Both the position numbers and the translations under genes were made by a program. The notes under the pieces were generated by a model. It ran no database searches. It saw only the letters and a program-made list of their open reading frames with translations, and was not told the origin of the DNA. Shown one piece after another: positions 1,369 to 49,305 of a stretch of DNA of 64,000 nt (position 1 is the stretch's first letter; the number at the start of each line of letters is the position of its first letter). Source of the stretch: a virus (taxonomy: Duplodnaviria; Caudoviricetes); the IMG/VR virus record IMGVR_UViG_3300011242_000003, positions 32,001 to 96,000 of that record, one strand, 5' to 3'.

Positions 1369-1905
1369 ATGATATGGGCGATTTTAGTTCCAATAGTAGT
1401 ATGTATTCTAATATCTTATTTTACCACATCAATACTCTATAAAATAGTATTTCTTGGGTTAGGTATATTTATAGCTATTACAGTAGGTTTAACTTATATA
1501 AATAATTTACTTAAAGATAGTATAAATAAATCCAAAGAAATAAATAGTAATGAAGGAGGGAATAATAGTAACAAAAAGAACATCAAGAATAATATCAAGA
1601 AAGTCCAACAATTTAAACCAAAGGTAATTAAAAATAAAGATTATGACAACTTAGTTAATACATTAAAATTTTGTATGAAAAATAAGATATTGAATAGGGA
1701 ACAAATATTGAATTTTAAATCAGAAGTAAACAATCACTTAGGCAAAAACAAAAATCACTACACTTTTAAATTTGATAATGATTTACATGAGATTTACTGC
1801 AAAATAAAGCATAAATCATTAAAGAGTAAAGATTATCAAGAATTATTACAAGTTTTAAATACTTACAATAACAAAGGAGAAACACCATATGATAAATGTA
1901 GATGA
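1369..1905 (+). CDS. Hypothetical membrane protein (2 N-terminal TM helices)
   Basis: ORF with AAGGA RBS; hydrophobic N-terminus. Confidence 0.75.
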   Translation: MIWAILVPIVVCILISYFTTSILYKIVFLGLGIFIAITVGLTYINNLLKDSINKSKEINSNEGGNNSNKKNIKNNIKKVQQFKPKVIKNKDYDNLVNTLKFCMKNKILNREQILNFKSEVNNHLGKNKNHYTFKFDNDLHEIYCKIKHKSLKSKDYQELLQVLNTYNNKGETPYDKCR

Positions 1906-2266
1906 TTACCAAAAATCATTATGCTCAGAAATATTTAATTCAAAGTTTATTCAAAAATATATATCTAAGTACTGCAAAAATTGCGTATATGGGTACTTGG
2001 GTCATGAAAGTAGAACACACGAAACTGATTTAATTTTGAATAATATATATTATTCATTGATATTAGATTCAAAACAATTTAAATTTAAAAAACGTCATTT
2101 TATAAAATGGATATGTTCAAAATATGCTCGAAAGTTTATGAATATATGCGACTATTGCGAGGATTTTGAATGTAGTATTATAAGTGAAATTAATCTATTT
2201 GCCCATTATGAGAACAAAATAAAAATTAATTTAACTAAACTAAGGAGGAATTCAAAATGGAATTAA
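1889..2266 (+). CDS. Hypothetical protein
   Basis: AAGGAG RBS; overlaps upstream stop. Confidence 0.7.
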   Translation: MINVDDYQKSLCSEIFNSKFIQKYISKYCKNCVYGYLGHESRTHETDLILNNIYYSLILDSKQFKFKKRHFIKWICSKYARKFMNICDYCEDFECSIISEINLFAHYENKIKINLTKLRRNSKWN

Positions 2267-2469
2267 CAACAGGAAGTATATTAACAAACAGAAAGGTGCT
2301 AATCAATCATAAGGAATTTAGAAAAACCTTCATGAATAGATTAGCACATTCTCAAGAGTGTATAATTGAAACTATGGATACTCTAAGAGAAACTGTTGCA
2401 AGGTTAGTTTGTAATGCTTTATACTACATATTATTTTTTATGATAGTGTTAATGGCATATGGATATTAA
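2257..2469 (+). CDS. Small hypothetical membrane protein
   Basis: AGGAGG RBS; C-terminal hydrophobic helix. Confidence 0.7.
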   Translation: MELTTGSILTNRKVLINHKEFRKTFMNRLAHSQECIIETMDTLRETVARLVCNALYYILFFMIVLMAYGY

Positions 2470-2755
2470 CTTTGTATAATAGTTGATAAACAGAAGATTA
2501 AATATAAAGTATAAAGTACCTCCAACATAAGCGAAATTTTCTTTATATCAATTTAAAGGCGAAATGTCCATTGGACTTTACCTAGTAGCCCGTAGTGGTT
2601 GCATTTTGGTACGCCTGAATAGGAGATAACTCATTTTTATAAATTAAACCACCATATTTAATTTTTGAGTCTTATCTCCATCCCTCTACATATATCTTAA
2701 CCAAGTAATATTTAAATTATACAGTTGAGATAATTATTTTTATGGAGGATTTTTA

Positions 2756-4126
2756 ATGATAACAGAATTTTTATTGGCAGGAGCATTACAATTTGGATAT
2801 GTAAAAATAAACAAGATGATAAAGGAATTAAAATATAAAGAAGATTATAAGGCGTTTAATAGCTTATGTACAAAATATGATTTACCATACAAAATCATAG
2901 AAGCATCCCAAGAAGATTATGGAACAAAATTAGTTGTAAGCCTAAAAGGTGGTACTTTTACAAGCTTAGAAAAACATAGTGATGAATTACAAATAAATAC
3001 AGAATCTAAGATTGAGATTATACAAAATGAAAATATAAAAACTGCAACCATTTATATTCTTAAAAATAAACTCAATGATATAGATAATAAGTTTGAACCT
3101 GTGCTAGTTAAACCTAGTGAGGTTTATATAGGATTAGATAATAAATTTAATCACATGATAATTGATTTAAATGATTTTCCTCATTTGATTTGTAGTGGTT
3201 CAACAGGAGTAGGAAAGTCTGAAGAATTAAAACTTATATTGGCAAACTCTATAAAATCTAACAAAGACAATAATTTAAATATACACATATGCAATGTTGG
3301 ACACACTGGCGACTTTGATGATTTTATAAATTGTAAACAAGTTAAAAGTTTTTCACAAGAATATAAAGAAATACAGAAACAATTTGAATATATAATACAC
3401 ACTTATGATAATAGAATAGAAACTTTTAGAAGATATGGTGTGAAGAATATAAAACAATTTAATAAAAAATTTAAAAATAGTCCAAAGAAAATGCCAATAG
3501 TATTTTTAGTAATTGATGAAATAGCATCTTTATATCCAAACGGAGAATTTGACAAAGAGGTAGCTATAAAATCCGAATTATTCAATAATTTATGTGATAT
3601 GGGAAGACGTGTCCGTAAGGCAGGAATTTTCCTATTAGTTGGAATACAAAGACCGAGCAGACAAGTATTTAACCCTGAACTTAAACAAAATCTTAATATT
3701 AAATTAGGATTTAATCAAAATAACACAGCATCAAGTTTGGTTGCCATGGATAATGAAAAAGTTGCTAAAATAGGAAGACGTAATTTCTTAGTTGAATATG
3801 GATGTGAAGAACATTGGGCAAGAAGTTTATATATTGATGACAATATAATAAAAGAAACTATAAAAGATAGTGTAGTTAAGAATAGACAAACTTTAGATGA
3901 TTTCAATAGTTTCTTAAAAAATGAGAAATCTGAAAAACCAAAGAATAATAAATCAAAAAATAAAGCAATTCCAAGCAAGAAAACCAAAATAATAAATCTA
4001 TCAGATGAGGTTGCAACAAGTAAAATTAGTAAAGTTAAAAATGTAGAAACTATCAACAATGTTACTTATGAAGTTGATAATGGTAAAATATGTTTAAGAA
4101 TTAAAGAAAAAGTAAAGGAGGCTTAA
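2756..4126 (+). CDS. FtsK/SpoIIIE-domain ATPase
   Basis: PHLICSGSTGVGKS Walker A, LVIDEI Walker B, RKAGI and QRP motifs. Confidence 0.9.
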   Translation: MITEFLLAGALQFGYVKINKMIKELKYKEDYKAFNSLCTKYDLPYKIIEASQEDYGTKLVVSLKGGTFTSLEKHSDELQINTESKIEIIQNENIKTATIYILKNKLNDIDNKFEPVLVKPSEVYIGLDNKFNHMIIDLNDFPHLICSGSTGVGKSEELKLILANSIKSNKDNNLNIHICNVGHTGDFDDFINCKQVKSFSQEYKEIQKQFEYIIHTYDNRIETFRRYGVKNIKQFNKKFKNSPKKMPIVFLVIDEIASLYPNGEFDKEVAIKSELFNNLCDMGRRVRKAGIFLLVGIQRPSRQVFNPELKQNLNIKLGFNQNNTASSLVAMDNEKVAKIGRRNFLVEYGCEEHWARSLYIDDNIIKETIKDSVVKNRQTLDDFNSFLKNEKSEKPKNNKSKNKAIPSKKTKIINLSDEVATSKISKVKNVETINNVTYEVDNGKICLRIKEKVKEA

Positions 4127-5350: not shown

Positions 5351-6211
5351 TTATAGCTTATCATACTCTTGTTTTAGTTGTCTTAGTTCCTCTCTTTCTT
5401 TATCAGTTATTTTATTTTCTTCTTCTTTCTTTTTTAATATATTTATTTTCTGCTTTAGTGATATTTTCTTTTTTACCTTATCTCTTGCTATAGGAGTTGA
5501 TTCTGTTATATTTTTCTCTTTTCTAATTTTTATCAATCTTCCTTCTAGTAGTTTTCTATCTTTGTATCTTGAAAAATATGTTGTTTCATTTTTTACTTTA
5601 TTGTCATTATATCCATATCCTGCATAGTCATGTTTTATTATTTCTATTTCATCTAACACTTTTAAGTATTTTAGGATTGTTGTTTCTGATAGCTGTAATT
5701 CTCTTGTCAATGTCTTTATTGCCATATAGCATAATTTATAATTTTCATCTTTTTCATTATTGTTAATACTTGCCATTATATATGCATATAGATTTATCAT
5801 TCCATATGTATCTACTTTATTATTGTTACAATATGTCATAATGGCTCTAATATCATCATCATAGACTATTGCGTACTCTGTAGGTACTAAATCATCTGTA
5901 GTATATATCAAATCATTTCTGCCTATATCTGTGGCTTGTACTCTATTAGAATCTTCTTCAACAGTATCATTATAATATTTTAATATATTATCTTGTTCAA
6001 GGTATATTAAAATATCTTTTATATTATTTATCTTTCTTGTGGAATTATTTGTTTGTCCTAATTTATTAGCTATCCATTGCAGAGTAAATATACATTGGTT
6101 CTTAACTGTTTTGTTCTGTGATAGCAATATCCATATTGTTAATTCCTTAGAAGTTAATTGTAAATCTCCTTTTATATATTCATTATTTATTATAGTAAAT
6201 TGTTGCTCCAT
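5351..6211 (-). CDS. Winged-HTH DNA-binding protein, putative replication initiator
   Basis: Two Rep-like wHTH segments (LTSKELTIWILL...; CYMAIKTLTRELQLSETTILKYLKVL). Confidence 0.55.
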   Translation of the reverse strand: MEQQFTIINNEYIKGDLQLTSKELTIWILLSQNKTVKNQCIFTLQWIANKLGQTNNSTRKINNIKDILIYLEQDNILKYYNDTVEEDSNRVQATDIGRNDLIYTTDDLVPTEYAIVYDDDIRAIMTYCNNNKVDTYGMINLYAYIMASINNNEKDENYKLCYMAIKTLTRELQLSETTILKYLKVLDEIEIIKHDYAGYGYNDNKVKNETTYFSRYKDRKLLEGRLIKIRKEKNITESTPIARDKVKKKISLKQKINILKKKEEENKITDKEREELRQLKQEYDKL

Positions 6212-7287: not shown

Positions 7288-8439
7288 TTATATATATTTT
7301 TTCATATTCATTTTTACGGCTGTTGCCCAATCTTCAATCAATTGTACTGCTTTTATATATGAATCTTTTTCATATTTTGGTAATTCATTTATATGCTCTG
7401 ACAACCAAGCCAATCCTGCTACGCTTTCAAAAAAAGTTTCTACTTTTGCACAAAACATTAAAGCGTTATCTTGTAATTTTTTTGCATATTTTTCTGTTTC
7501 TGATGTGTTTTTAATAGATTTAAGTTCTTCTTCAAGTGATTGTAATTTATTTAGTTTAATGTCATAATCTCTTTTTAAATTGTTGTAATATGTATCTTTG
7601 TTTTTGATTTCATTTTTTAAATTATTATAATCATTAGGTATAATTTCTTTTTCAACTTCTATAATAGGTCTATTTTCAAGTTCTCTTTTAAGATTATTTA
7701 TTTCATCTTGTAGTTTAGTTTGTTTGCTAATTTCATTTACTAATTTAATATTTTTATCTTCTAATTGTTTCTTCTCATTAATCAACTCTTCTGTAGCCTT
7801 TTGTGTAAGGGTTTTAATCTTATCACGACCTATTTCATTAAAGAACTTTTCTTGTTCTTCTTGTGGCATTTTAGCCCATATTTTATATCCCACAGTTGCT
7901 TTCATAGAGCCTGATTCAATTAGTGATTGAAGTTCAGGGATAAGGTCATTAAGTTTTTTGTAGTTTAAATATGTACTTCTATCCATTTCCATATCACTCG
8001 CTATAGTTGTTTGAGTTTTTCCAATTGTAGAATTATTCAACAATTGGGGATTTCCTCTCTGAATTCCATAAATTCTCTCCAATTCATTTATACATTTTGC
8101 CATTTTCATAGGATTTACATTGCCAACACCTCTTTGCATAATGTTTGTACATATTAAGTCTTCTAGTATCATGTCATCTTTTGGTGTACCTGTGTTGTCA
8201 TCAAAATCTTTATAGTGTGTTACTCTACAAGGTACTTCTAATATACCAAGTTCTTTACAAGCTCTAACTCTTTGATGTCCACTTACTATTATTAAATCTT
8301 GTGTAACAACTACACCTTCCACTACTCCTCTCCTTATTATTGATTTTTTAAAATCTTCCCATTTATCTCCAACTATATTGTCAAAGAACTCATTATTTCT
8401 TGGATGATTTTTTAATGTTGAAATTTCAATCATTTGCAT
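7288..8439 (-). CDS. ParB-like N-terminal domain protein with HTH and coiled coil
   Basis: LKNHPRN, IVSGHQRVRA ParB motif, NIMQR, TQTTIA..M.M.RST HTH. Confidence 0.85.
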   Translation of the reverse strand: MQMIEISTLKNHPRNNEFFDNIVGDKWEDFKKSIIRRGVVEGVVVTQDLIIVSGHQRVRACKELGILEVPCRVTHYKDFDDNTGTPKDDMILEDLICTNIMQRGVGNVNPMKMAKCINELERIYGIQRGNPQLLNNSTIGKTQTTIASDMEMDRSTYLNYKKLNDLIPELQSLIESGSMKATVGYKIWAKMPQEEQEKFFNEIGRDKIKTLTQKATEELINEKKQLEDKNIKLVNEISKQTKLQDEINNLKRELENRPIIEVEKEIIPNDYNNLKNEIKNKDTYYNNLKRDYDIKLNKLQSLEEELKSIKNTSETEKYAKKLQDNALMFCAKVETFFESVAGLAWLSEHINELPKYEKDSYIKAVQLIEDWATAVKMNMKKYI

Positions 8440-23821: not shown

Positions 23822-24778
23822 ATGAAAGAAATATTAAATAAATATGAGAATTATTTGAGAACACAAGGAAGAAGCGAGAATACAATAAAAAACTATTGTT
23901 GTGATTTAAATAAATTTATCAAATATTTTGAAGAAGTAAAAGGTCAAGGAGATGTATTTTACTCAATTTCTGTTATAGATTTAATGGAGTATGTTAATTA
24001 TATTAAATTTCATTGTGGGAAAAACAATACAGAAGCAAACCCCAAAACAATTAATCGAAATATATCCACTCTTAAAAAATTTTATGAGTGGATGAAAAAA
24101 TGTAATATTATACATTATAATGATATGAAAGAGATAGAATTTGTGTCTACTCCAAAAAATCAAAGTGTAATTTATATGGATTTAGATGAATCTAAATGTT
24201 TTATGAGAAGTGTTATTACTGGTCAAGAAAAGAAAGAAAGATGTTCAGATTTTGCAGGAGCAAGAGATGAATTAATGTTTAAAATATATCTTGATAGTGG
24301 ATTAAGATGTGAAGAACTTTTAGATGTTAAATTAAATGACATATACTTGAAAAAGAAAATGATAAAAATTAGAAGTGGTAAGGGTGACAAAGAAAGATAT
24401 GTTCCTATAACAGATAAAACTATAGAACTATATTATAAGTATATGAAAGTTAGAGAAAAAAGAAATAAAAATAATTCTGATTATTTAATATTAAATAATA
24501 GAGGTGGACAAATGTCTAAAAGCGGTGTGTTGAAGTTAACTAAGTATTATGCTAAAAATTCACAATTAAATTCAGAATTAGCAGAAAAGATTACTCCTCA
24601 TAAACTTAGACATAGCTTTGCAACAATACAAAGTGATTTAGGTACGCCAATATCAACGATAAGCAAAACGTTAGGACATTCAAAAATTGCAACAACTCAA
24701 AATATATATATACATTTAGACACTGAAAAAATGTTAAACGCCACTAGAGAAAATTCAAAAGCTCTGGATAACTATTGA
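23822..24778 (+). CDS. Tyrosine recombinase/integrase (XerC/D-like; positional YopP equivalent)
   Basis: N-terminal SAM-like domain; full catalytic set GLR, GKGDKER, HKLRH, LGH, IY. Confidence 0.92.
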   Translation: MKEILNKYENYLRTQGRSENTIKNYCCDLNKFIKYFEEVKGQGDVFYSISVIDLMEYVNYIKFHCGKNNTEANPKTINRNISTLKKFYEWMKKCNIIHYNDMKEIEFVSTPKNQSVIYMDLDESKCFMRSVITGQEKKERCSDFAGARDELMFKIYLDSGLRCEELLDVKLNDIYLKKKMIKIRSGKGDKERYVPITDKTIELYYKYMKVREKRNKNNSDYLILNNRGGQMSKSGVLKLTKYYAKNSQLNSELAEKITPHKLRHSFATIQSDLGTPISTISKTLGHSKIATTQNIYIHLDTEKMLNATRENSKALDNY

Positions 24779-27230: not shown

Positions 27231-28316
27231 ATGGAAAGACGTTTTGAAGTTCATAGTTTAGAGGATGAAGGTAGATTAAATAAAGAAGAATTAAGTAAAT
27301 TAGAAAATAGTTTCAAATCAGAAAGCATTTATATTGAAAATGAAGAATTTCTTAAATCTAAGGTTAAATACTTGTTTGATAACTACGACCATGAAAATAC
27401 GTTAGGTGTATATTGGAGAACATTTAAAAATTATATATTAACACCAGAGATTGACCTTGGTAAAAATATATATGAATTTACAAGCAATGAAGTAGAACAA
27501 ATGATGTTATCTATTCCTGCACCACGTAATGTAAAAAATACTATTTATAGATTAGCAAATTTATATATTGATTGGGCATTAAAAATAGAAAAACTAGCTA
27601 TGAGAACAAATCCGTTTGACCCATTTACGGCAGATGATTTATTAATAGTAAATAAAAAAGTTATTCAAAATGAATATATGAGTATGGATGATGTTTTCGA
27701 TATGGCTATTATTTCAGATAAAGAAGGAGTGCCATATCAGAAAATCATAGTATTTATACTAGGAAGATTGGGACTTTATGGCAAAGAAGGTTCATATTTA
27801 GCTGACCTAAGAAAAACTCATATAAATAGAGAAACTAACACTATATCAATAGTTGATGATATGACAGGTGAAATATTATCTCAAATTCCTGTTACAGATG
27901 AAAGAGTATATTATTGGTTAGAGTGTGCTGAGAATGAGACACAATACGATTATAGACCTTATATAACAGAAAATAATGTAGCAAGACGTGGAGCAGAGTT
28001 AGTATTCATAGAGTCTGATGGTAGAGTTTTAAAAAGCTATAATAAAAAATATGATAGAGTTCTCAAAGGTAATTTATATAATGCACTAAAAGAAATTTTT
28101 AGAATCAATGATAGAAAACTAATGGGATTTAAAAAACTTGTAAGATGTGCTAAGTTTGACCAATTAGATAAAAGGCTAAAAGACAACGGTAAATTGACCG
28201 TTACAGACGTTCAAGAAGTTCAGAGGATGTATGAGCCTACCTCAACCTATTCAAGCTATTACACGCTAAAACAGGACTATGAGAGTTATAACCCTAATAT
28301 TAAGATAGAGAAATAA
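27231..28316 (+). CDS. MrpR/YopR-like master repressor (degenerate tyrosine-recombinase fold)
   Basis: E..LGKNIYEFT..E N-domain, YIDWA, NPF; GLYG in place of the catalytic GxR; no HxxR; synteny with the YopQ-like gene; terminator at 28302-28330. Confidence 0.65.
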   Translation: MERRFEVHSLEDEGRLNKEELSKLENSFKSESIYIENEEFLKSKVKYLFDNYDHENTLGVYWRTFKNYILTPEIDLGKNIYEFTSNEVEQMMLSIPAPRNVKNTIYRLANLYIDWALKIEKLAMRTNPFDPFTADDLLIVNKKVIQNEYMSMDDVFDMAIISDKEGVPYQKIIVFILGRLGLYGKEGSYLADLRKTHINRETNTISIVDDMTGEILSQIPVTDERVYYWLECAENETQYDYRPYITENNVARRGAELVFIESDGRVLKSYNKKYDRVLKGNLYNALKEIFRINDRKLMGFKKLVRCAKFDQLDKRLKDNGKLTVTDVQEVQRMYEPTSTYSSYYTLKQDYESYNPNIKIEK

Positions 28317-28351
28317 TCTCTATCTTTTTTATTTATTAAAAAAATATAAAA

Positions 28352-28508
28352 TTAAGTGAATAAAAATATTAAATTGTGTTGACAATAGTAATAAGATACT
28401 ATATACTAATATTTGTGAGGCAGATATATCAAATATTCACAGTCAAACAAAATTAATTAAAATAAAATATTAAAAAGTATTGACTTAGCTGAATATATGG
28501 TATATACT
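28352..28508 (+). promoter_or_regulatory. Tandem sigma-A promoters, each with a 22-bp operator, driving the mazF-TPR-peptide operon
   Basis: Operators at 28352 and 28453; TTGACA (28379)-17-TATACT and TTGACT (28480)-17-TATACT. Confidence 0.75.
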
Positions 28509-28546
28509 TGTAAATATAGTAAATAAATATTAAGGGGTTTTAGAAA

Positions 28547-29224
28547 ATGGTAAGAATGGATTTAGAAGAATTAAAGAAGTTAAAAAGGGGTATGGAAGAA
28601 GAAAGAAATAAACTTAGGGTAATAAGAACAATTAGAAGAGGAGATATTTATTGGTGTGATTTGGGAGATGCAAAATCTAAAGATGATAATGGAATAAAAG
28701 AAGAAGGAGAACAGGCAGGTAAAAGACCTTGTTTAATAGTACAAAACGATATCGGAAATAAATATAGTCCTACAGTAATTGTTATACCAATAAGTTCGAA
28801 AATAGAAAAATGTAAACAACCAACACATACACTAATTACTAAAGAGGATTGCCAAAGTCTTTATAAAGATAGTTATTTGGTGGGAGAACAAATTAATACT
28901 ATAACTAAAAACAAATTAGGCGACTACATAGGTCACGTAATGAATGATAAAATAATTAAAGCAATGAAGATAAGTTTAGGTTTACAAAGGATTACTACTG
29001 AAAAAGAAGATGTTTTAATAAATAAAGTTAAACATTTAAAAGAGCTTGAAATAATGATTTCAATGATGTTAGATAAATCAAATAATATTATAACTGATTT
29101 TATTAAACAGTTTGTAGATGATAGACATAATTTACTACTTGATATTAAAGAATATTGTAATAGAAACAATATGAATTTACATTACTATTATAAAAAAGAA
29201 GAATACATTAAGATAGCAATATAA
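28547..29224 (+). CDS. mazF: PemK/MazF-family endoribonuclease with N- and C-terminal extensions
   Basis: RRGDIYWCDL, EQAGKRPCLIVQNDIGNKYSPTVIVIPISS, DS..GEQI.TI.K..L; about 80 aa extra helical C-terminus. Confidence 0.88.
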   Translation: MVRMDLEELKKLKRGMEEERNKLRVIRTIRRGDIYWCDLGDAKSKDDNGIKEEGEQAGKRPCLIVQNDIGNKYSPTVIVIPISSKIEKCKQPTHTLITKEDCQSLYKDSYLVGEQINTITKNKLGDYIGHVMNDKIIKAMKISLGLQRITTEKEDVLINKVKHLKELEIMISMMLDKSNNIITDFIKQFVDDRHNLLLDIKEYCNRNNMNLHYYYKKEEYIKIAI

Positions 29225-29254: not shown

Positions 29255-29851
29255 ATGTTAAACATTGATAATGATAGAATAAGTGTATGCACTTGCTTTG
29301 GGGACGGTGAATATGAAAAAGGACGAAAGAAATTATTTGTAATGTATAATACAAAGCTAAAAAAAATAAATAATATTGAAGATATAAGATTTATAATTCA
29401 CAATCTTGCATGGGTTGAATATTATTTAAAAAATATAGAAAGTGCTAGAAAATATTCAACTCAAATAAAAAATATATTTGAAGAAAATGATGCTTATATT
29501 AAAAATTATCCTAGTGAATATTGTAAAATATTAGATTTATACAATATTTCGCATACAGGTATAATTTCTATGGATGAAAAAATAAATCTATATAAGGAAA
29601 CATATGCCATTTACTGTAAAACGGGTTCACCAGACAGATATATGGCACTACATAATATTTATGACTTAAAAAAAGAATATTACAAAATACCTAATCTTTT
29701 AAAGGAAATGCTTTCAAATATAGGAGAACATCAAAATTTTGTATCAGAGTTTTTAAAAGATTTAGAAGAAAATGACAAGCAATCTTACGAAGAATCCCTA
29801 TTAATAATAGAGGAGTTTAAATTGAGCAATGCTTCTATAACTAGTTTATAG
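29255..29851 (+). CDS. TPR-like helical protein, putative RRNPP-type peptide receptor lacking HTH
   Basis: Helical repeats (IIHNLAWVEYYLKNIESARKY; ALHNIY); directly upstream of a secreted peptide gene. Confidence 0.6.
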   Translation: MLNIDNDRISVCTCFGDGEYEKGRKKLFVMYNTKLKKINNIEDIRFIIHNLAWVEYYLKNIESARKYSTQIKNIFEENDAYIKNYPSEYCKILDLYNISHTGIISMDEKINLYKETYAIYCKTGSPDRYMALHNIYDLKKEYYKIPNLLKEMLSNIGEHQNFVSEFLKDLEENDKQSYEESLLIIEEFKLSNASITSL

Positions 29852-29888
29852 AAGATTGACTATAGATATACTAAAGGAGGAAATTAAC

Positions 29889-30077
29889 ATGAAAAAAACA
29901 ACAAAGAAAACAATTTTAATTTTAGGAGGTATGGCATTAGTATTATCATTAATCATTATGCCAATGGCAAAAGGTGAAGGACAAGGTAGTTGGGGTATGG
30001 AGGATTATAGACCATTTGGCACAGGAGAAGGTCAGGGAAGTTGGGGTATGGAATTGCCAACATATTTTAACCGTTAA
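29889..30077 (+). CDS. Secreted signalling pro-peptide with two GEGQGSWGME repeats
   Basis: AAGGAGG RBS; basic-plus-hydrophobic signal peptide; 62 aa; duplicated decapeptide. Confidence 0.8.
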   Translation: MKKTTKKTILILGGMALVLSLIIMPMAKGEGQGSWGMEDYRPFGTGEGQGSWGMELPTYFNR

Positions 30078-30105
30078 GTAAAAGAACATAGACATAATAT
30101 TTACT

Positions 30106-30132
30106 AGAGTAGGAGTCAAAGCCTACTCTTTT
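30106..30132 (+). terminator. Intrinsic terminator closing the mazF-TPR-peptide operon
   Basis: AGAGTAGG-agtcaaag-CCTACTCT followed by T-tract. Confidence 0.8.
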
Positions 30133-30163
30133 TAGAATAATATATTAAATGAGGAGAGGTTGA

Positions 30164-30862: not shown

Positions 30863-32086
30863 GTGATTAAAATAAAAATATCAAGAGTAGAAAGACATAA
30901 TATTTTAAGAGCAAATCCCTTGTGGAATGAATTAGATAGTCTATGTTTTAAATCCAAAAATCTATATAATTATGCTAATTATATAATGCGACAAAGCTTT
31001 ATAAATAAACAGGGTATTATTAAGTATGGTGATTTAACATATCAATTAAAACATAGTGAACCTTTTAAAGACTTAGGAAGTAATTCCTCACAACATGTTT
31101 TAAAAATGTTATGCAGAGATTGGAAATCGTTTATGGAATTGCTAAAGATGTATAATAAGAATCCAAATAGCTTATTAGGAAGACCTAAACTACCACATTA
31201 TAAAAATAAAAATGGTAGACATATATGTATCTTGACTAATTGGCAATCACAAATTAAAGATGGATATTTATTCTTTGCATTTAAACCTTTGAAGCCTTTT
31301 AATAATAAAATTAAAACTAAAACAAAAGGAAAACATATGCAAACTAGAATTATACCTAAAGGTGTTTGTTATATATTAGAGATAGTATATGAAATTGAAG
31401 TACCTGATATAAAAGAAGAATCTAAAAATATTTCTAGTATTGATTTAGGGATAAACAACTTTGTAACTTTATCAAATAATATTGGTGCAAAATCAATTAT
31501 TATTAATGGCAAGGGGATTAAATCTTATAATAAATACTGGAATAAGCAAGTTGCAAAATATAGAGCATTAGCAAAAATTAACAATGCTTTAGATTGGAGT
31601 AAAACTTTAGAAAGGTTATATAATCAAAGATACAATAAAATGGAATATTGGATGCATAAGATAAGTAAAGAAGTTATTAATTATTGCATAGCATTAAATA
31701 TTGATACTTTAGTTGTAGGATTGAATAAAGAGTGGAAACAAGAAAGTAAAATGAATAATATAGTAAATCAAACTTTTATTCAAATTCCATATGATAATTT
31801 AATTAATAAACTAAAGTACAAATGTGAAAATGTAGGGATTAAATTTATAATCACAGAAGAAAGTTATACGAGTGGTACATCATTTTTAGATAATGAATTA
31901 CCAATAAAAGAGAACTATAATAAATCAAGACGAGTTAAAAGAGGTTTATTTAAATCCAATAATGGTATGTTGATAAATGCTGATTTAAATGGCAGTTATC
32001 AGATAATGAAAAAAGTATTTCCAAATGCTTTTACAAATGGGATAGTGGGTGTAGATTTACATCCTGTAGTGATTAATTGTTATTAA
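30863..32086 (+). mobile_element. tnpB: IS200/IS605-family (IS1341-like) TnpB RNA-guided nuclease, no TnpA
   Basis: RuvC motifs SIDLGINN, EESYTS, NADLNGSYQI; right-end-like hairpin AATGGATT/AATCCATT at 32108-32127. Confidence 0.88.
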
Positions 32087-42298: not shown

Positions 42299-44029
42299 TT
42301 GATAACATTGAAAAGAGAATCAAACAAGAAAATAATAATAAGTTTTATAGTTGCAATTATATTTATTATTATTTCATTTGCAATAATTAAAATGAACAAA
42401 CAAGATATTCCGTCTATGAATTATTTAGAGTTTTTAAACAAAGCAAATAACAAACAAATCGAGCAGGTGAAAATTAATTTAGATAAGGACGTATTCAAAA
42501 CTAAAGATACTAACGGCAATGAATATCTCGTTAATAATCCCAAATATGATGATTTTAAAAAAGATTTATTGTCTATGAATATTAATGTCAAAGAAATAAA
42601 AGGGTTTGATAAAGATACGTTTATTGATATATCAATAATTGCACTTTTACTTATTGTAATATCATCAAGTGGTGCATTTAAGCAAATAAAATCTATCGAT
42701 AGAGATATAACCAATAATAAAGTTCCTAAAGATATAAGTTTTAAAAATGTAGCAGGATTAACAGCCATAAAAAAAGATATGGATACAATAGTTGATTTTA
42801 TGAAAAACCCACAAAGATATGTTGAAAAAGGTGCAGAAATGCCGAGAGGGGCGATATTATATGGTGAACCAGGAACAGGTAAAACACTTCTTGCTAAGGC
42901 AATAGCAGGTGAAGCAGAAGTTCCATTTTTGAGTGTTTCGGGGTCGGAATTTGTTGAATTATTTGTTGGGCAAGGAGCAAAGAGAGTTAGAAAACTATTT
43001 CATGACGCTAAGGTCAAAGCCCCTTGTATCATATTTATAGATGAAATTGATGCTATAGGTAAGACAAGAGGTAAAGGAGGTACTGCGGGTAATAATGAAT
43101 TGGAACAAACGCTTAATCAATTATTAATTGAGATAGATGGGTTTAATAGTTCGTCAGGTATATTTGTTATAGGTGCAACTAATAGACTAGATACCTTAGA
43201 TAGTGCATTACTTAGACAGGGGAGATTTGACAAACATATTTGTGTACCCTTGCCTTCAACTCCTGAAGAAAGATTAGAAATAATAAAAATGTATTCTAAT
43301 AATAAACTATTTGCCGAAAATGTTGATTTTAATAGTATGGCTAAACAAACCATTGGTTTTAGTCCTGCCGATATAAAATCATTATTAAATGAAGCCACAC
43401 TTATTTCGGTACAACTAAACAAACAACTTGTTGATAGGGAATGTATAGATAAAGCCATATTTAAGAAAGCATTAAAAGGTCACGAAGGAGAAATAAATAA
43501 CAGGGGAAAAGACGAATTAAAACTTATTGCATATCATGAAGCAGGTCATGCAATAACTGCCAGAATATTAGGTATGGATGTTCCTAAGGTTACAATAATA
43601 CCTTCTACAAGTGGTGCGGGAGGAGTTACATTTATAACTCCTAACAAAATTAATTTATTATCAAAAGAAGAAATTGAGAATAATATTATGGTGAAATATG
43701 GCGGTAGAAATGCCGAAAGAATATTATTGAATAATGATAATAAAGTTACGACTGGTGCTGAAGCAGATATAGAATCATCAACTAAACTAATTATGTCAAT
43801 GATAACACAATATGCAATGATTTCAGATTTTGGTATGTTGAATATGTCAGTGATTAAATGTGATAACGATATGATTATAAATAAAGCAATAGAAATATCT
43901 AATGAATTAAATAAAAAATCGTATCAAATATTAATAAACAATATAGACAAATTGGAACAAGTGGCAAATGCACTTATAGAAAAAGAAACAATATCAGGTG
44001 AAGAATTGGATAGAATTATTAAGATTTAG
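42299..44029 (+). CDS. ftsH: ATP-dependent zinc metalloprotease FtsH
   Basis: Two TM helices, [11 protein letters not shown] pore loop, [29 protein letters not shown]. Confidence 0.95.
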
Positions 44030-47385: not shown

Positions 47386-49305
47386 TTGAAAGATATATGT
47401 AAGGCAGATGGGTGTGTAGGGGAAGTTGAGAAAAATGGTTATTGCAATAAACATATTCAACAAATTAAAAAACATGGTAGATTAACTCCAGAACTCGAAA
47501 GAGGAAAAATAAGTACCCTTAATAAGTGTTTAGTAGAAGGCTGTGATAAAAATGTATACGCAAAGGGGTATTGTCAAAGGCATTATCTACAAATAAAAAA
47601 ATATGGGAAGATAGTTTCTGTTGCCAACCGATATAATAAAAACAAAAATAAAATCTGTAAAGTTGAAGGATGTAATAATGACTCTTTTGCAAAAGGATAT
47701 TGTCAAAAGCATTATGGTCAATTGAGATATAGTAAGAGAATTAAAGATGGAAGAGTGTTGGAAAGCAAAGACAAACCCATGCCAAAAAGTAAGGTTAATA
47801 CATGTTTGGTTAAAAATTGCAATAATGAGATTTATGCAAAAGGATATTGCCAGAAACACTATTTCCAATTGTATAATTATGGCAAGGTTATGGGGGAAAA
47901 GGGAGAAGTCGAGCCGAAAACTTGTATCGTTAAAAACTGTAAAGAAATAGTTTTCAAGGAAGGGTATTGTAAAAGTCATTATGAAAAGTTTCAATCTTAT
48001 AATGATTTTGGTGAAGAAGGTAGCAACAAATGTAGAGTAAAGGGATGTGATAGAGAGCAACACTCGAAAGGATTCTGTAGTTTTCATTACGCTCATTTTA
48101 AGCAATTTGGTGAAATATTATATGTAACCCCACAAAGAAAAAAGGGAGTCTCAAAGAATGAACACTATAAAAAATATTGGTTAGGTGAGAATAAATTGGA
48201 TAAGAATAGTCAAACTGAACAGAAACTAAAGAATGACAAAAATATTGAAATACAAGAACCATCTTTAACTAAAAATAATGATAAAAAGATATGTTTAGTA
48301 GAAGGTTATAATGATACAGCAAAATCAAAAGGCTATTGTGACAAGTATGAATATAAAGATGATTTGGCTAAAAATAAAAACATGGATAATACAGAAATAA
48401 AAAAACAAGATGTCAAAGATGTAAATATGGAATCCAAGGAGGCTTATAGAAAATGCTCAGTAGAGGGGTGCAATGGAAAACATAAAGCTAAAGGTTATTG
48501 CATATATCATTACAACCAGTTTAAAAGACATGGGAAAATATTAGACAACACAAAGGAATCATTTAATAAGGAAATTAAATATTGTCCTGTAGAAGGCTGT
48601 ACTAATACTGTCACGACAAAAGGATATTGCCAGAAACATTACTACAAGTTTAAGACTTATGGAAATCCACTGCAAGAAAATAAATCACAAAGGGGTAGAA
48701 AATGTTCAATAGAAGGTTGTAATGAAAAACATAAAGCCAAGGGATATTGTGACAAACATTATCATCAATATAAATCACGCTTGTTAAAAGCTAGTCGTGA
48801 ACCTAAAGTCAAAGTAGAAAAACCTAAAGTTAAAGTAGAAAAACCTAAAGTTAAAGTAGAAAAACCTAAATATTGTAAAGTTCAAGATTGTAATAATGTT
48901 TTATTTATTAGAGGGTATTGTATGAAACACTATAAACAAATAATGAAATATAAAAGGATTTTGAGTGAAGAAGAAGTTTTAAAAATAAAACATCTAAAAT
49001 GTATGAAGGACGGATGTTTTAATAAGGTATTCCACTTGGGTTACTGTGAAGAACATTATAATGAATACTATTGTGGAGATGATAATAAAATGAATATAAA
49101 TGATAATGCAGACAATAATCATGATGATAATCACGCAGAGGCTATAGGGAACAATAATATTATCTGTAATAAATGTAGAAAATTAATTGATGATGAACAA
49201 GTTTCCACTGTTAATTTTAAGCCATTCAATACAGATAATATAGAATTAAAATTATGCAATAAATGTTCCAATAGCTTAATAAAATGGATGCTAAGAGTAG
49301 ATTAA
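47386..49305 (+). CDS. Protein with 12 tandem C-x4-C-x9-C-x2-H Zn-finger-like repeats and a C-terminal C4 ribbon
   Basis: Repeats such as CLVEGCDKNVYAKGYCQRHY (11 intact, 1 degenerate); CNKC...CNKC at the end. Confidence 0.85.
   Translation: MKDICKADGCVGEVEKNGYCNKHIQQIKKHGRLTPELERGKISTLNKCLVEGCDKNVYAKGYCQRHYLQIKKYGKIVSVANRYNKNKNKICKVEGCNNDSFAKGYCQKHYGQLRYSKRIKDGRVLESKDKPMPKSKVNTCLVKNCNNEIYAKGYCQKHYFQLYNYGKVMGEKGEVEPKTCIVKNCKEIVFKEGYCKSHYEKFQSYNDFGEEGSNKCRVKGCDREQHSKGFCSFHYAHFKQFGEILYVTPQRKKGVSKNEHYKKYWLGENKLDKNSQTEQKLKNDKNIEIQEPSLTKNNDKKICLVEGYNDTAKSKGYCDKYEYKDDLAKNKNMDNTEIKKQDVKDVNMESKEAYRKCSVEGCNGKHKAKGYCIYHYNQFKRHGKILDNTKESFNKEIKYCPVEGCTNTVTTKGYCQKHYYKFKTYGNPLQENKSQRGRKCSIEGCNEKHKAKGYCDKHYHQYKSRLLKASREPKVKVEKPKVKVEKPKVKVEKPKYCKVQDCNNVLFIRGYCMKHYKQIMKYKRILSEEEVLKIKHLKCMKDGCFNKVFHLGYCEEHYNEYYCGDDNKMNINDNADNNHDDNHAEAIGNNNIICNKCRKLIDDEQVSTVNFKPFNTDNIELKLCNKCSNSLIKWMLRVD
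48800..48870 (+). repeat. 21-bp in-frame tandem repeat (KPKVKVE x3)
   Basis: AACCTAAAGTYAAAGTAGAAA three times plus a partial copy. Confidence 0.9.

Follow-up and report, generated by a model that had tools for sequence, protein, structure and literature searches.

Relation to known peptide communication systems

Communication of phages by peptides has been established experimentally mainly in Bacillus, by arbitrium and by phage-borne Rap-Phr. The arbitrium of SPbeta/phi3T (AimR-AimP-AimX) acts through the MazE-MazF of the host (PMC10769878). Both Rap-Phr and NprR-NprX have documented multi-copy propeptides (Even-Tov et al. 2016, PMC5199041), and doubled autoinducers are also found more widely in RRNPPA systems (PMC9765709). 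The program RRNPP_detector requires receptors of 250-500 aa with TPR HMM matches, and the validated receptors of this type have 285-473 aa (PMC10075063).

Here we describe a phage unit of three genes: a long MazF-like RNase, a TPR protein of 198 aa and, as the last gene, a 62-aa peptide precursor that carries the decapeptide GEGQGSWGME twice. The window, by which we mean the whole stretch of 64,000 nucleotides that was analysed, corresponds to positions 32001-96000 of a 146.8-kb IMG/VR virus record (CheckV completeness 79%) and has ~26% G+C throughout. Most probably the unit is a miniature cassette for phage peptide communication, of a new kind, and our literature search found no description of a MazF-TPR-peptide phage cassette. 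We regard it as fairly probable that the precursor and the TPR protein are an RRNPP-like signal-receptor pair in which the receptor has no HTH. What is novel is the receptor family and its proposed wiring to a MazF of the phage; the repeat as such is commonplace in propeptides of this sort.

When the cassette is placed next to the RRNPP(A) definition, the propeptide of 62 aa falls inside the range of 10-100 aa, and it lies beside the receptor gene, 37 nt away on the same strand, an adjacency found in 14/14 lineages. The receptor, however, has 198 aa (196-215 aa in relatives) against the 250-500 aa of the definition. Formally, the cassette departs from two of the five RRNPP_detector criteria, the receptor length and the TPR HMM match, although the TPR fold of the receptor model is clear. 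Since large-scale detectors need receptors of that size together with TPR HMM matches, they would miss a TPR family of ~200 aa.

The likeness to Rap-Phr consists of a receptor without HTH that is proposed here to act by protein contact, an adjacent propeptide predicted to be of the Sec type, an intragenic duplication of the putative autoinducer, carriage on a mobile element and a receptor model that matches RapI, RapH and phi105 Rap. There are also clear differences. Rap is a protein of ~380 aa built from an N-terminal 3-helix bundle and ~7 TPRs, whereas the cassette receptor has no bundle, and neither Pfam and NCBIfam nor a profile search against PDB sequences gave a sequence-level Rap match for it. 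Mature Phr and AimP peptides are C-terminal, whereas the motif of the cassette comprises 9 residues at the N-terminal end of the pro-region. In addition, the Rap-Phr model has the copies diverge after duplication, and the copies of the cassette stay identical. A preliminary description of this DNA had likened the precursor to multi-copy precursors of the Phr/AimP type. This comparison is borne out as far as the multiplication of the motif within one propeptide goes, but not in the placement of the motif, and the partner is not of the Rap or AimR type but an undescribed TPR-only protein.

With arbitrium the cassette shares a phage-encoded peptide, predicted to be secreted, and a TPR receptor located beside a YopP/Q/R (MrpR)-type lysogeny block, as well as a MazF-family RNase that we propose to be part of the circuit. 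In contrast, AimR is an HTH+TPR protein of ~380 aa that controls aimX, while the cassette receptor has neither an HTH nor an antiterminator. Pfam, NCBIfam and PHROGs do not link the TPR protein to AimR, and no aimX-like gene was identified at the cassette. Furthermore, the peptide shows no relation to AimP, the phage itself encodes the MazF, in an extended form and probably in the same operon, and the host would be a low-GC clostridial-type organism instead of Bacillus.

A third resemblance, to ComR-ComS (XIP) and Rgg-SHP, appears in distant members of the TPR family, which are accompanied by leaderless ORFs of 17-20 aa with acidic and Trp-containing C-termini (DMWG, DKWG, EMWG); the C-termini of GAS ComS include SAVDWWRL and EFDWWNLG (PMC4162386). 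A 466-aa HTH+TPR regulator from a clostridial-class genome (L027), which is related to the window receptor but a different protein, has a weak ComR_TPR match below the Pfam cut-off. The window pair differs from these systems in its 62-aa precursor of predicted Sec type and in its receptor without HTH.

The precursor gene and its doubled motif

The precursor gene (P0001) occupies 29889-30077 on the plus strand, and its homologues P0002 and P0003 are found at the equivalent position. The 62-aa ORF is a real gene. A strong ribosome-binding site, AAAGGAGG, can be read directly at 29873-29880 (+), 8 nt upstream of the ATG. Coding on the reverse strand was considered and rejected, as the pattern of synonymous and non-synonymous changes fits the plus frame only. 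On the 3' side of the gene an 8-bp hairpin followed by TTTT (30106-30133, +) is a weak terminator candidate: the fold of 30078-30145 has -12.4 kcal/mol (z = -2.7), and a terminator scan that requires five T did not report the hairpin.

By simple rules the N-terminus of the precursor is predicted to be a Sec-type signal. A heuristic script places the signal peptide at residues 1-29 (29889-29975, +), with a charge of +4 within the first nine residues, a 15-residue hydrophobic core in the h-region ILILGGMALVLSLII (mean hydropathy 2.9) and the -3/-1 site AKG|E. The same script gives an n-region charge of +3 or +4 and a mean h-region hydropathy of 2.3-2.9 for the Sec-type precursors overall, and finds the x-x-G|[ED]G site kept in 6/7 relatives. 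The predicted site coincides with the very start of the first repeat copy, where the -3/-1 rule makes the first G the probable -1 position for cleavage by signal peptidase.

The two copies of GEGQGSWGME are located at 29973-30002 and 30024-30053 and are separated by the linker DYRPFGT (30003-30023); the tail LPTYFNR (30054-30074) follows, all on the plus strand. Reading and script agree on five differences between the copies, each in a third codon position and each silent, exactly as the preliminary description had it. In simulation, five random substitutions in 30 nt are all silent with P = 4.5e-5 at equal rates and P = 8e-5 when transitions are weighted threefold.

Purifying selection on the peptide and an old duplication had been proposed from these five changes, and the alignment of homologous precursors now argues for both. 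Two metagenomic homologues, 77% and 72% identical to the window precursor, keep both copies of GEGQGSWGM exactly, while the signal peptide, the linker and the tail vary among the three doubled-motif lineages. Over both copies and all three lineages at least 11 synonymous changes stand against 0 non-synonymous ones. According to Nei-Gojobori counts, the 18 core codons have pN 0.00 and pS 0.5-0.8, the rest of the precursor gene has pN ~0.19 and pS ~0.4, and the linker, whose length is 8 vs 6 residues between lineages, has pN 0.1-0.5 (up to 0.49) and pS 0.2-0.8. Judged from these counts, both motif copies are under selection on the peptide. The Gln codon is CAA in copy 1 and CAG in copy 2 in each of the three lineages. 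Therefore, the duplication predates their split, and the copies have not been homogenised but have evolved separately since then. One correction applies to the unit that is conserved: the repeat is invariant, but it has 9 residues and not 10, as the tenth is N in copy 1 of one lineage; thus the invariant cores are 29973-29999 and 30024-30050. In the tail, the penultimate Asn is the only residue invariant across the alignment of seven Sec-type precursors.

A side observation concerns the DNA of the repeats. In the window, L002 and L008 precursors the pS inside the two cores (0.5-1.0; 29973-30050 in the window) exceeds that of the rest of the gene (~0.4), with small numbers, and the Gly codons alternate between GGT and GGA from copy to copy within each lineage. 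It could be that the dissimilarity of the copies at the DNA level is itself selected, against slippage or recombination.

The TPR protein and the peptide ORFs of its family

The candidate intracellular peptide receptor is the 198-aa TPR-only protein encoded at 29255-29851 (+), which was characterised with AF2, Foldseek and VIA-align. An exhaustive HMMER search yielded ~30 representative relatives, nearly all of 196-215 aa, and the resulting alignment was used for the AF2 model (pLDDT 95.5), an all-helical repeat of 11 helices without an HTH. The protein has no signal sequence or membrane helix. Foldseek matched the model to the TPR domain of kinesin light chain (KLC) and to RapI with TM ~0.7. 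VIA-align gave Z 13.9 for KLC2 with a Trp-acidic peptide (PDB 3zfw), Z 13.3 for PlcR-PapR (rmsd 2.9 over 166 residues), Z 11.9 for RapH, Z 11.8 for RapI and Z 11.4 for phi105 Rap with peptide. Helical repeats often reach Z-scores of 12-15, and the fold match therefore does not single out RRNPP receptors. The aligned part of RapH and RapI is residues ~95-300. As modelled, the protein has the fold of a peptide-binding-type TPR solenoid, which does not mark it as an RRNPP member. The kinesin structure, among the best structural matches, has a groove that reads a short Trp-centred cargo motif with acidic neighbours; this protein is eukaryotic and has no demonstrable homology to the receptor, hence it serves only as an analogy for the reading of a WG/acidic motif. 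A receptor without a DNA-binding domain must act by protein-protein contact.

Neither the TPR protein nor the precursor belongs to a family in Pfam, PHROGs or NCBIfam, Pfam gave no significant TPR HMM match for the 198-aa protein, and the profile search against PDB sequences returned non-significant TPR/PPR matches only. Searching GenBank phages with the TPR protein (tblastn) gave no match, the only matches of the cassette in a blastn comparison with phages and plasmids were unrelated HNH or PemK fragments, and a profile search of viral and genome contigs with the close alignment found no relatives. The genome survey detected the family in 2/399 genomes searched at class level and 4/293 at family level. 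By hhalign the family matches the C-terminal TPR half of the HTH+TPR regulator mentioned above with a probability of 94.9%.

A small peptide ORF lies 3' of the TPR gene in all 14 lineages with readable downstream DNA, and thus the family is paired with small peptide ORFs throughout. Thirteen of the 14 ORFs contain a Trp-Gly element, which has an acidic residue within the five preceding positions in 12/13; the exception is an ORF ending in GGWG. Behind each TPR orthologue at 60-65% identity there is an ORF of 44-48 aa, of predicted Sec type, with one motif copy directly after the signal peptide (GDGLPEWGM, EDGKPGWGM, GEGKPGWGT, GEGKPSWGT). Of the window precursor these relatives preserve little beyond G[ED]Gxx.WG[MT]. 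In six lineages, with TPR proteins of 26-31% identity from metagenomes and two bacterial genomes, the ORFs are leaderless and end in [DE][MK]WG or GGWG; they are situated 3' of the receptor gene or overlap its 3' end, each with a GGAGGTG site of its own.

Some of the leaderless cassettes have features worth recording. A clostridial-class genome of 4.3 Mb (G001) harbors three paralogous cassettes of a ~200-aa TPR protein and a leaderless MFNF...D[MK]WG peptide (L022, L023 and L024), one of them on the same contig as a relaxase and MobC. The cassette L025, from genome G190, adjoins a serine recombinase. In L022-L025 the peptide ORF overlaps the last codons of the receptor, and its ribosome-binding site is within the receptor gene.

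A distant relative with the complete arrangement is a prophage region of another bacterial genome (L026, G666:C110), where a long MazF, a TPR protein and a precursor follow one another in this order on the reverse strand (1489-3551). Its MazF is 35% identical to that of the window, including the C-terminal extension, its TPR protein (202 aa) is 30% identical, and its Sec-type precursor of 53 aa carries IDPPIA twice, the second copy being C-terminal. To judge by its sequence, L026 is an independent replicate of the MazF-TPR-doubled-precursor design. As the doubled motif is a different one, the doubling of the presumed signal arose at least twice in the TPR family, as one would predict for a repeated unit that is itself the active product. 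The suggestion that the repeat marks the functional core of the precursor is strengthened by this distant case, by the single-copy relatives that keep the motif and by the constant position of the gene 3' of the TPR protein. The L026 region also contains an MrpR-like C-terminus.

The MazF gene, the proposed circuit and its alternatives

The cassette is preceded by an SPbeta-type lysogeny block. A tyrosine integrase (23822-24778), a phrog_5732 protein and an MrpR-like gene are arranged upstream of it in the order of the SPbeta repressor block, and the order is the same in relatives. The MrpR-like gene, the last of the block, encodes an MrpR/YopR-like recombinase-fold repressor candidate (27231-28316, +; Pfam MrpR_N_CB, E=2.6e-8; phrog_5830 integrase); homologous loci also have MrpR_C_cat. 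A terminator-like hairpin with a 10-bp stem and a T-run (28302-28326, +) ends the upstream operon. Downstream of it a consensus scan located two promoter-like sites on the plus strand, TTGACA-17-TATACT (28379-28407, 11/12) and TTGACT-17-TATACT (28480-28508, 10/12), which are consensus matches only.

The long MazF/PemK-like RNase (28547-29224, +; PF02452, E=7e-24; phrog_1936 and phrog_35650) has 225 aa, arranged as an N-terminal helix, the MazF core and a C-terminal helical hairpin of ~85 residues (AF2 model pLDDT 75.8). The MazF keeps the conserved catalytic Arg and Thr of its family: in the MazF alignment R60 is invariant and T76 near-invariant; we take these residues to be the equivalents of R25 and T48 of B. 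subtilis MazF. A mazE-like antitoxin gene was not found: the plus strand has no ORF of at least 30 aa in 28317-28546, and the gene after MazF is that of the TPR protein. The gaps within the unit are 30 nt between the MazF and TPR genes and 37 nt between the TPR and peptide genes, and the hairpin with its TTTT run comes after. In every related phage examined the long MazF comes after the MrpR-like gene, and in most of these phages a TPR relative is next, a partial one (86.5% probability) and a truncated one included.

After the long MazF of L032, the 158 nt of sequence that remain contain no TPR gene, which is uninformative. In L030 the long MazF is followed by the truncated TPR relative of 104 aa (5641-5955), which corresponds to the N-terminal half only (91.6% probability) and leaves no space for a peptide gene; it may be a "deaf" or constitutive version.

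The surroundings contain other genes of interest. Two genes after the precursor there is a TnpB/IS605 OrfB-type gene (30863-32086; OrfB_IS605 and Cas12f1-like TNB), and syntenic relatives such as L002 have no gene of TnpB size at that site; from this comparison the gene looks like an insertion in this phage. The window also encodes a ParB-like partition nuclease (7288-8439, minus strand) and an FtsK/SpoIIIE-like protein (2756-4126, +), which, taken with the integrase, are a hint of a phage-plasmid or of an otherwise unusual mode of maintenance. A 576-aa AAA+ protein matching phrog_30773 is encoded at 42299-44029 and a 639-aa protein with seven HNH-type stretches at 47386-49305.

For the cassette we infer the following course of export, cleavage, import, binding and MazF output. 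Sec would carry the precursor out of the cell, and cleavage by signal peptidase behind Gly29 (AKG|E) would free a pro-peptide of 33 residues carrying (G)EGQGSWGM twice. Trimming by extracellular proteases would yield two identical short signals from each precursor, with Trp-Gly at the core, and an oligopeptide permease would re-import them. Once in the cytoplasm, the signals would bind in the groove of the TPR protein, as in quorum sensing of the RRNPP type, and the receptor would act by contact with another protein, for which the co-transcribed long MazF is the most likely candidate partner. In this way the density of the phage or of lysogens would feed into the lysis-lysogeny decision.

The last part of this course is the most tentative. 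That MazF is the output of the signal-receptor pair is a possibility to which we give well under even chances; it is plausible because arbitrium works through the host MazF (PMC10769878). With the same reserve one may imagine the 198-aa protein as a peptide-gated antitoxin or regulator of the extended MazF. By means of the doubled secreted motif the phage population would in that case adjust the activity of MazF and, through it, the choice between lysis and lysogeny. Such wiring, should it exist, might amount to an arbitrium-like logic assembled from unrelated parts in clostridial-type phages, leading from signal to toxin without a transcription factor, which we put forward as a conjecture. 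Moreover, the MazF output is not universal, since the bacterial cassettes of TPR and WG peptide have no MazF adjacent and one long-MazF locus has no TPR gene within 158 nt.

The same facts bear on another explanation, that the peptide and the TPR protein do signal, but to an output other than MazF. The TPR protein would then sequester a different phage regulator, such as the product of the downstream gene or the MrpR-like repressor, and MazF would belong to the lysogeny block as a constant component of its own. Besides the bacterial cassettes and the loci where the long MazF is accompanied by a truncated TPR relative or by none within 158 nt, this idea draws on the gene 3' of the precursor in single-copy relatives (L014, L015, L016/L017), which is of the antirepressor type (Phage_pRha, ORF6N or Bro-N+ANT). 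In the window clade, though, the gene at this place is HNH/AP2 endonuclease-like and not an antirepressor, and the adjacency of MazF and TPR persists down to 30-35% identity. On balance we consider this explanation unlikely, but not to be neglected.

It could also be argued that the signal is not a trimmed peptide, and that the whole pro-peptide of ~33 residues is a bivalent ligand, which joins two TPR molecules or raises the avidity for one. This would agree with the long-kept identity of the copies, where the Rap-Phr model expects divergence after duplication, and with the independent doubling of a different motif in a second lineage. However, the variation of the linker in sequence and length means that the spacing is unconstrained, the single-copy relatives and the leaderless ones of 17-20 aa have one motif, and the import of a 33-mer would be unusual. 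We consider it unlikely that the two copies act as one ligand.

It is improbable that the small protein is a membrane-anchored or secreted effector, i.e. an exclusion factor, a small toxin or a bacteriocin-like peptide, for which the TPR protein would serve as chaperone or provide immunity. Its N-terminal hydrophobic segment and the toxin gene next to the cassette would suit such a role, but the focus of selection is a polar, Gly-rich 9-mer that is not part of this segment, and the leaderless relatives share the WG end only. Neither is there any adjacent gene for a transporter, for modification or for an immunity-type membrane protein, and the TPR protein lacks a signal sequence or membrane helix. 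A RiPP or bacteriocin was rejected separately, because neither here nor in relatives does a gene for a modifying enzyme, a transporter or immunity lie next to the cassette.

Finally, short Gly-rich repeats arise easily, but a chance repeat or a recent tandem duplication of no special function has a practically negligible probability and is refuted by the silent-change simulation (P ~5-8e-5) and by the fact that three lineages conserve both copies, their synonymous sites being saturated and their codons specific to each copy.

If the reading of the cassette as a signal-receptor pair is true, there is a whole class of TPR-only receptors of ~200 aa whose accompanying peptide genes are tiny and encode either Sec-type products or leaderless ones with a WG end, and this class would span clostridial-type phages, prophages and plasmid-like contigs. 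Its phage branch has the receptor and a MazF RNase in one operon beside repressor genes, and the link between arbitrium and MazF could be tested there in a simpler and self-contained system. The doubled, strictly conserved motif is an immediate candidate ligand for synthesis.
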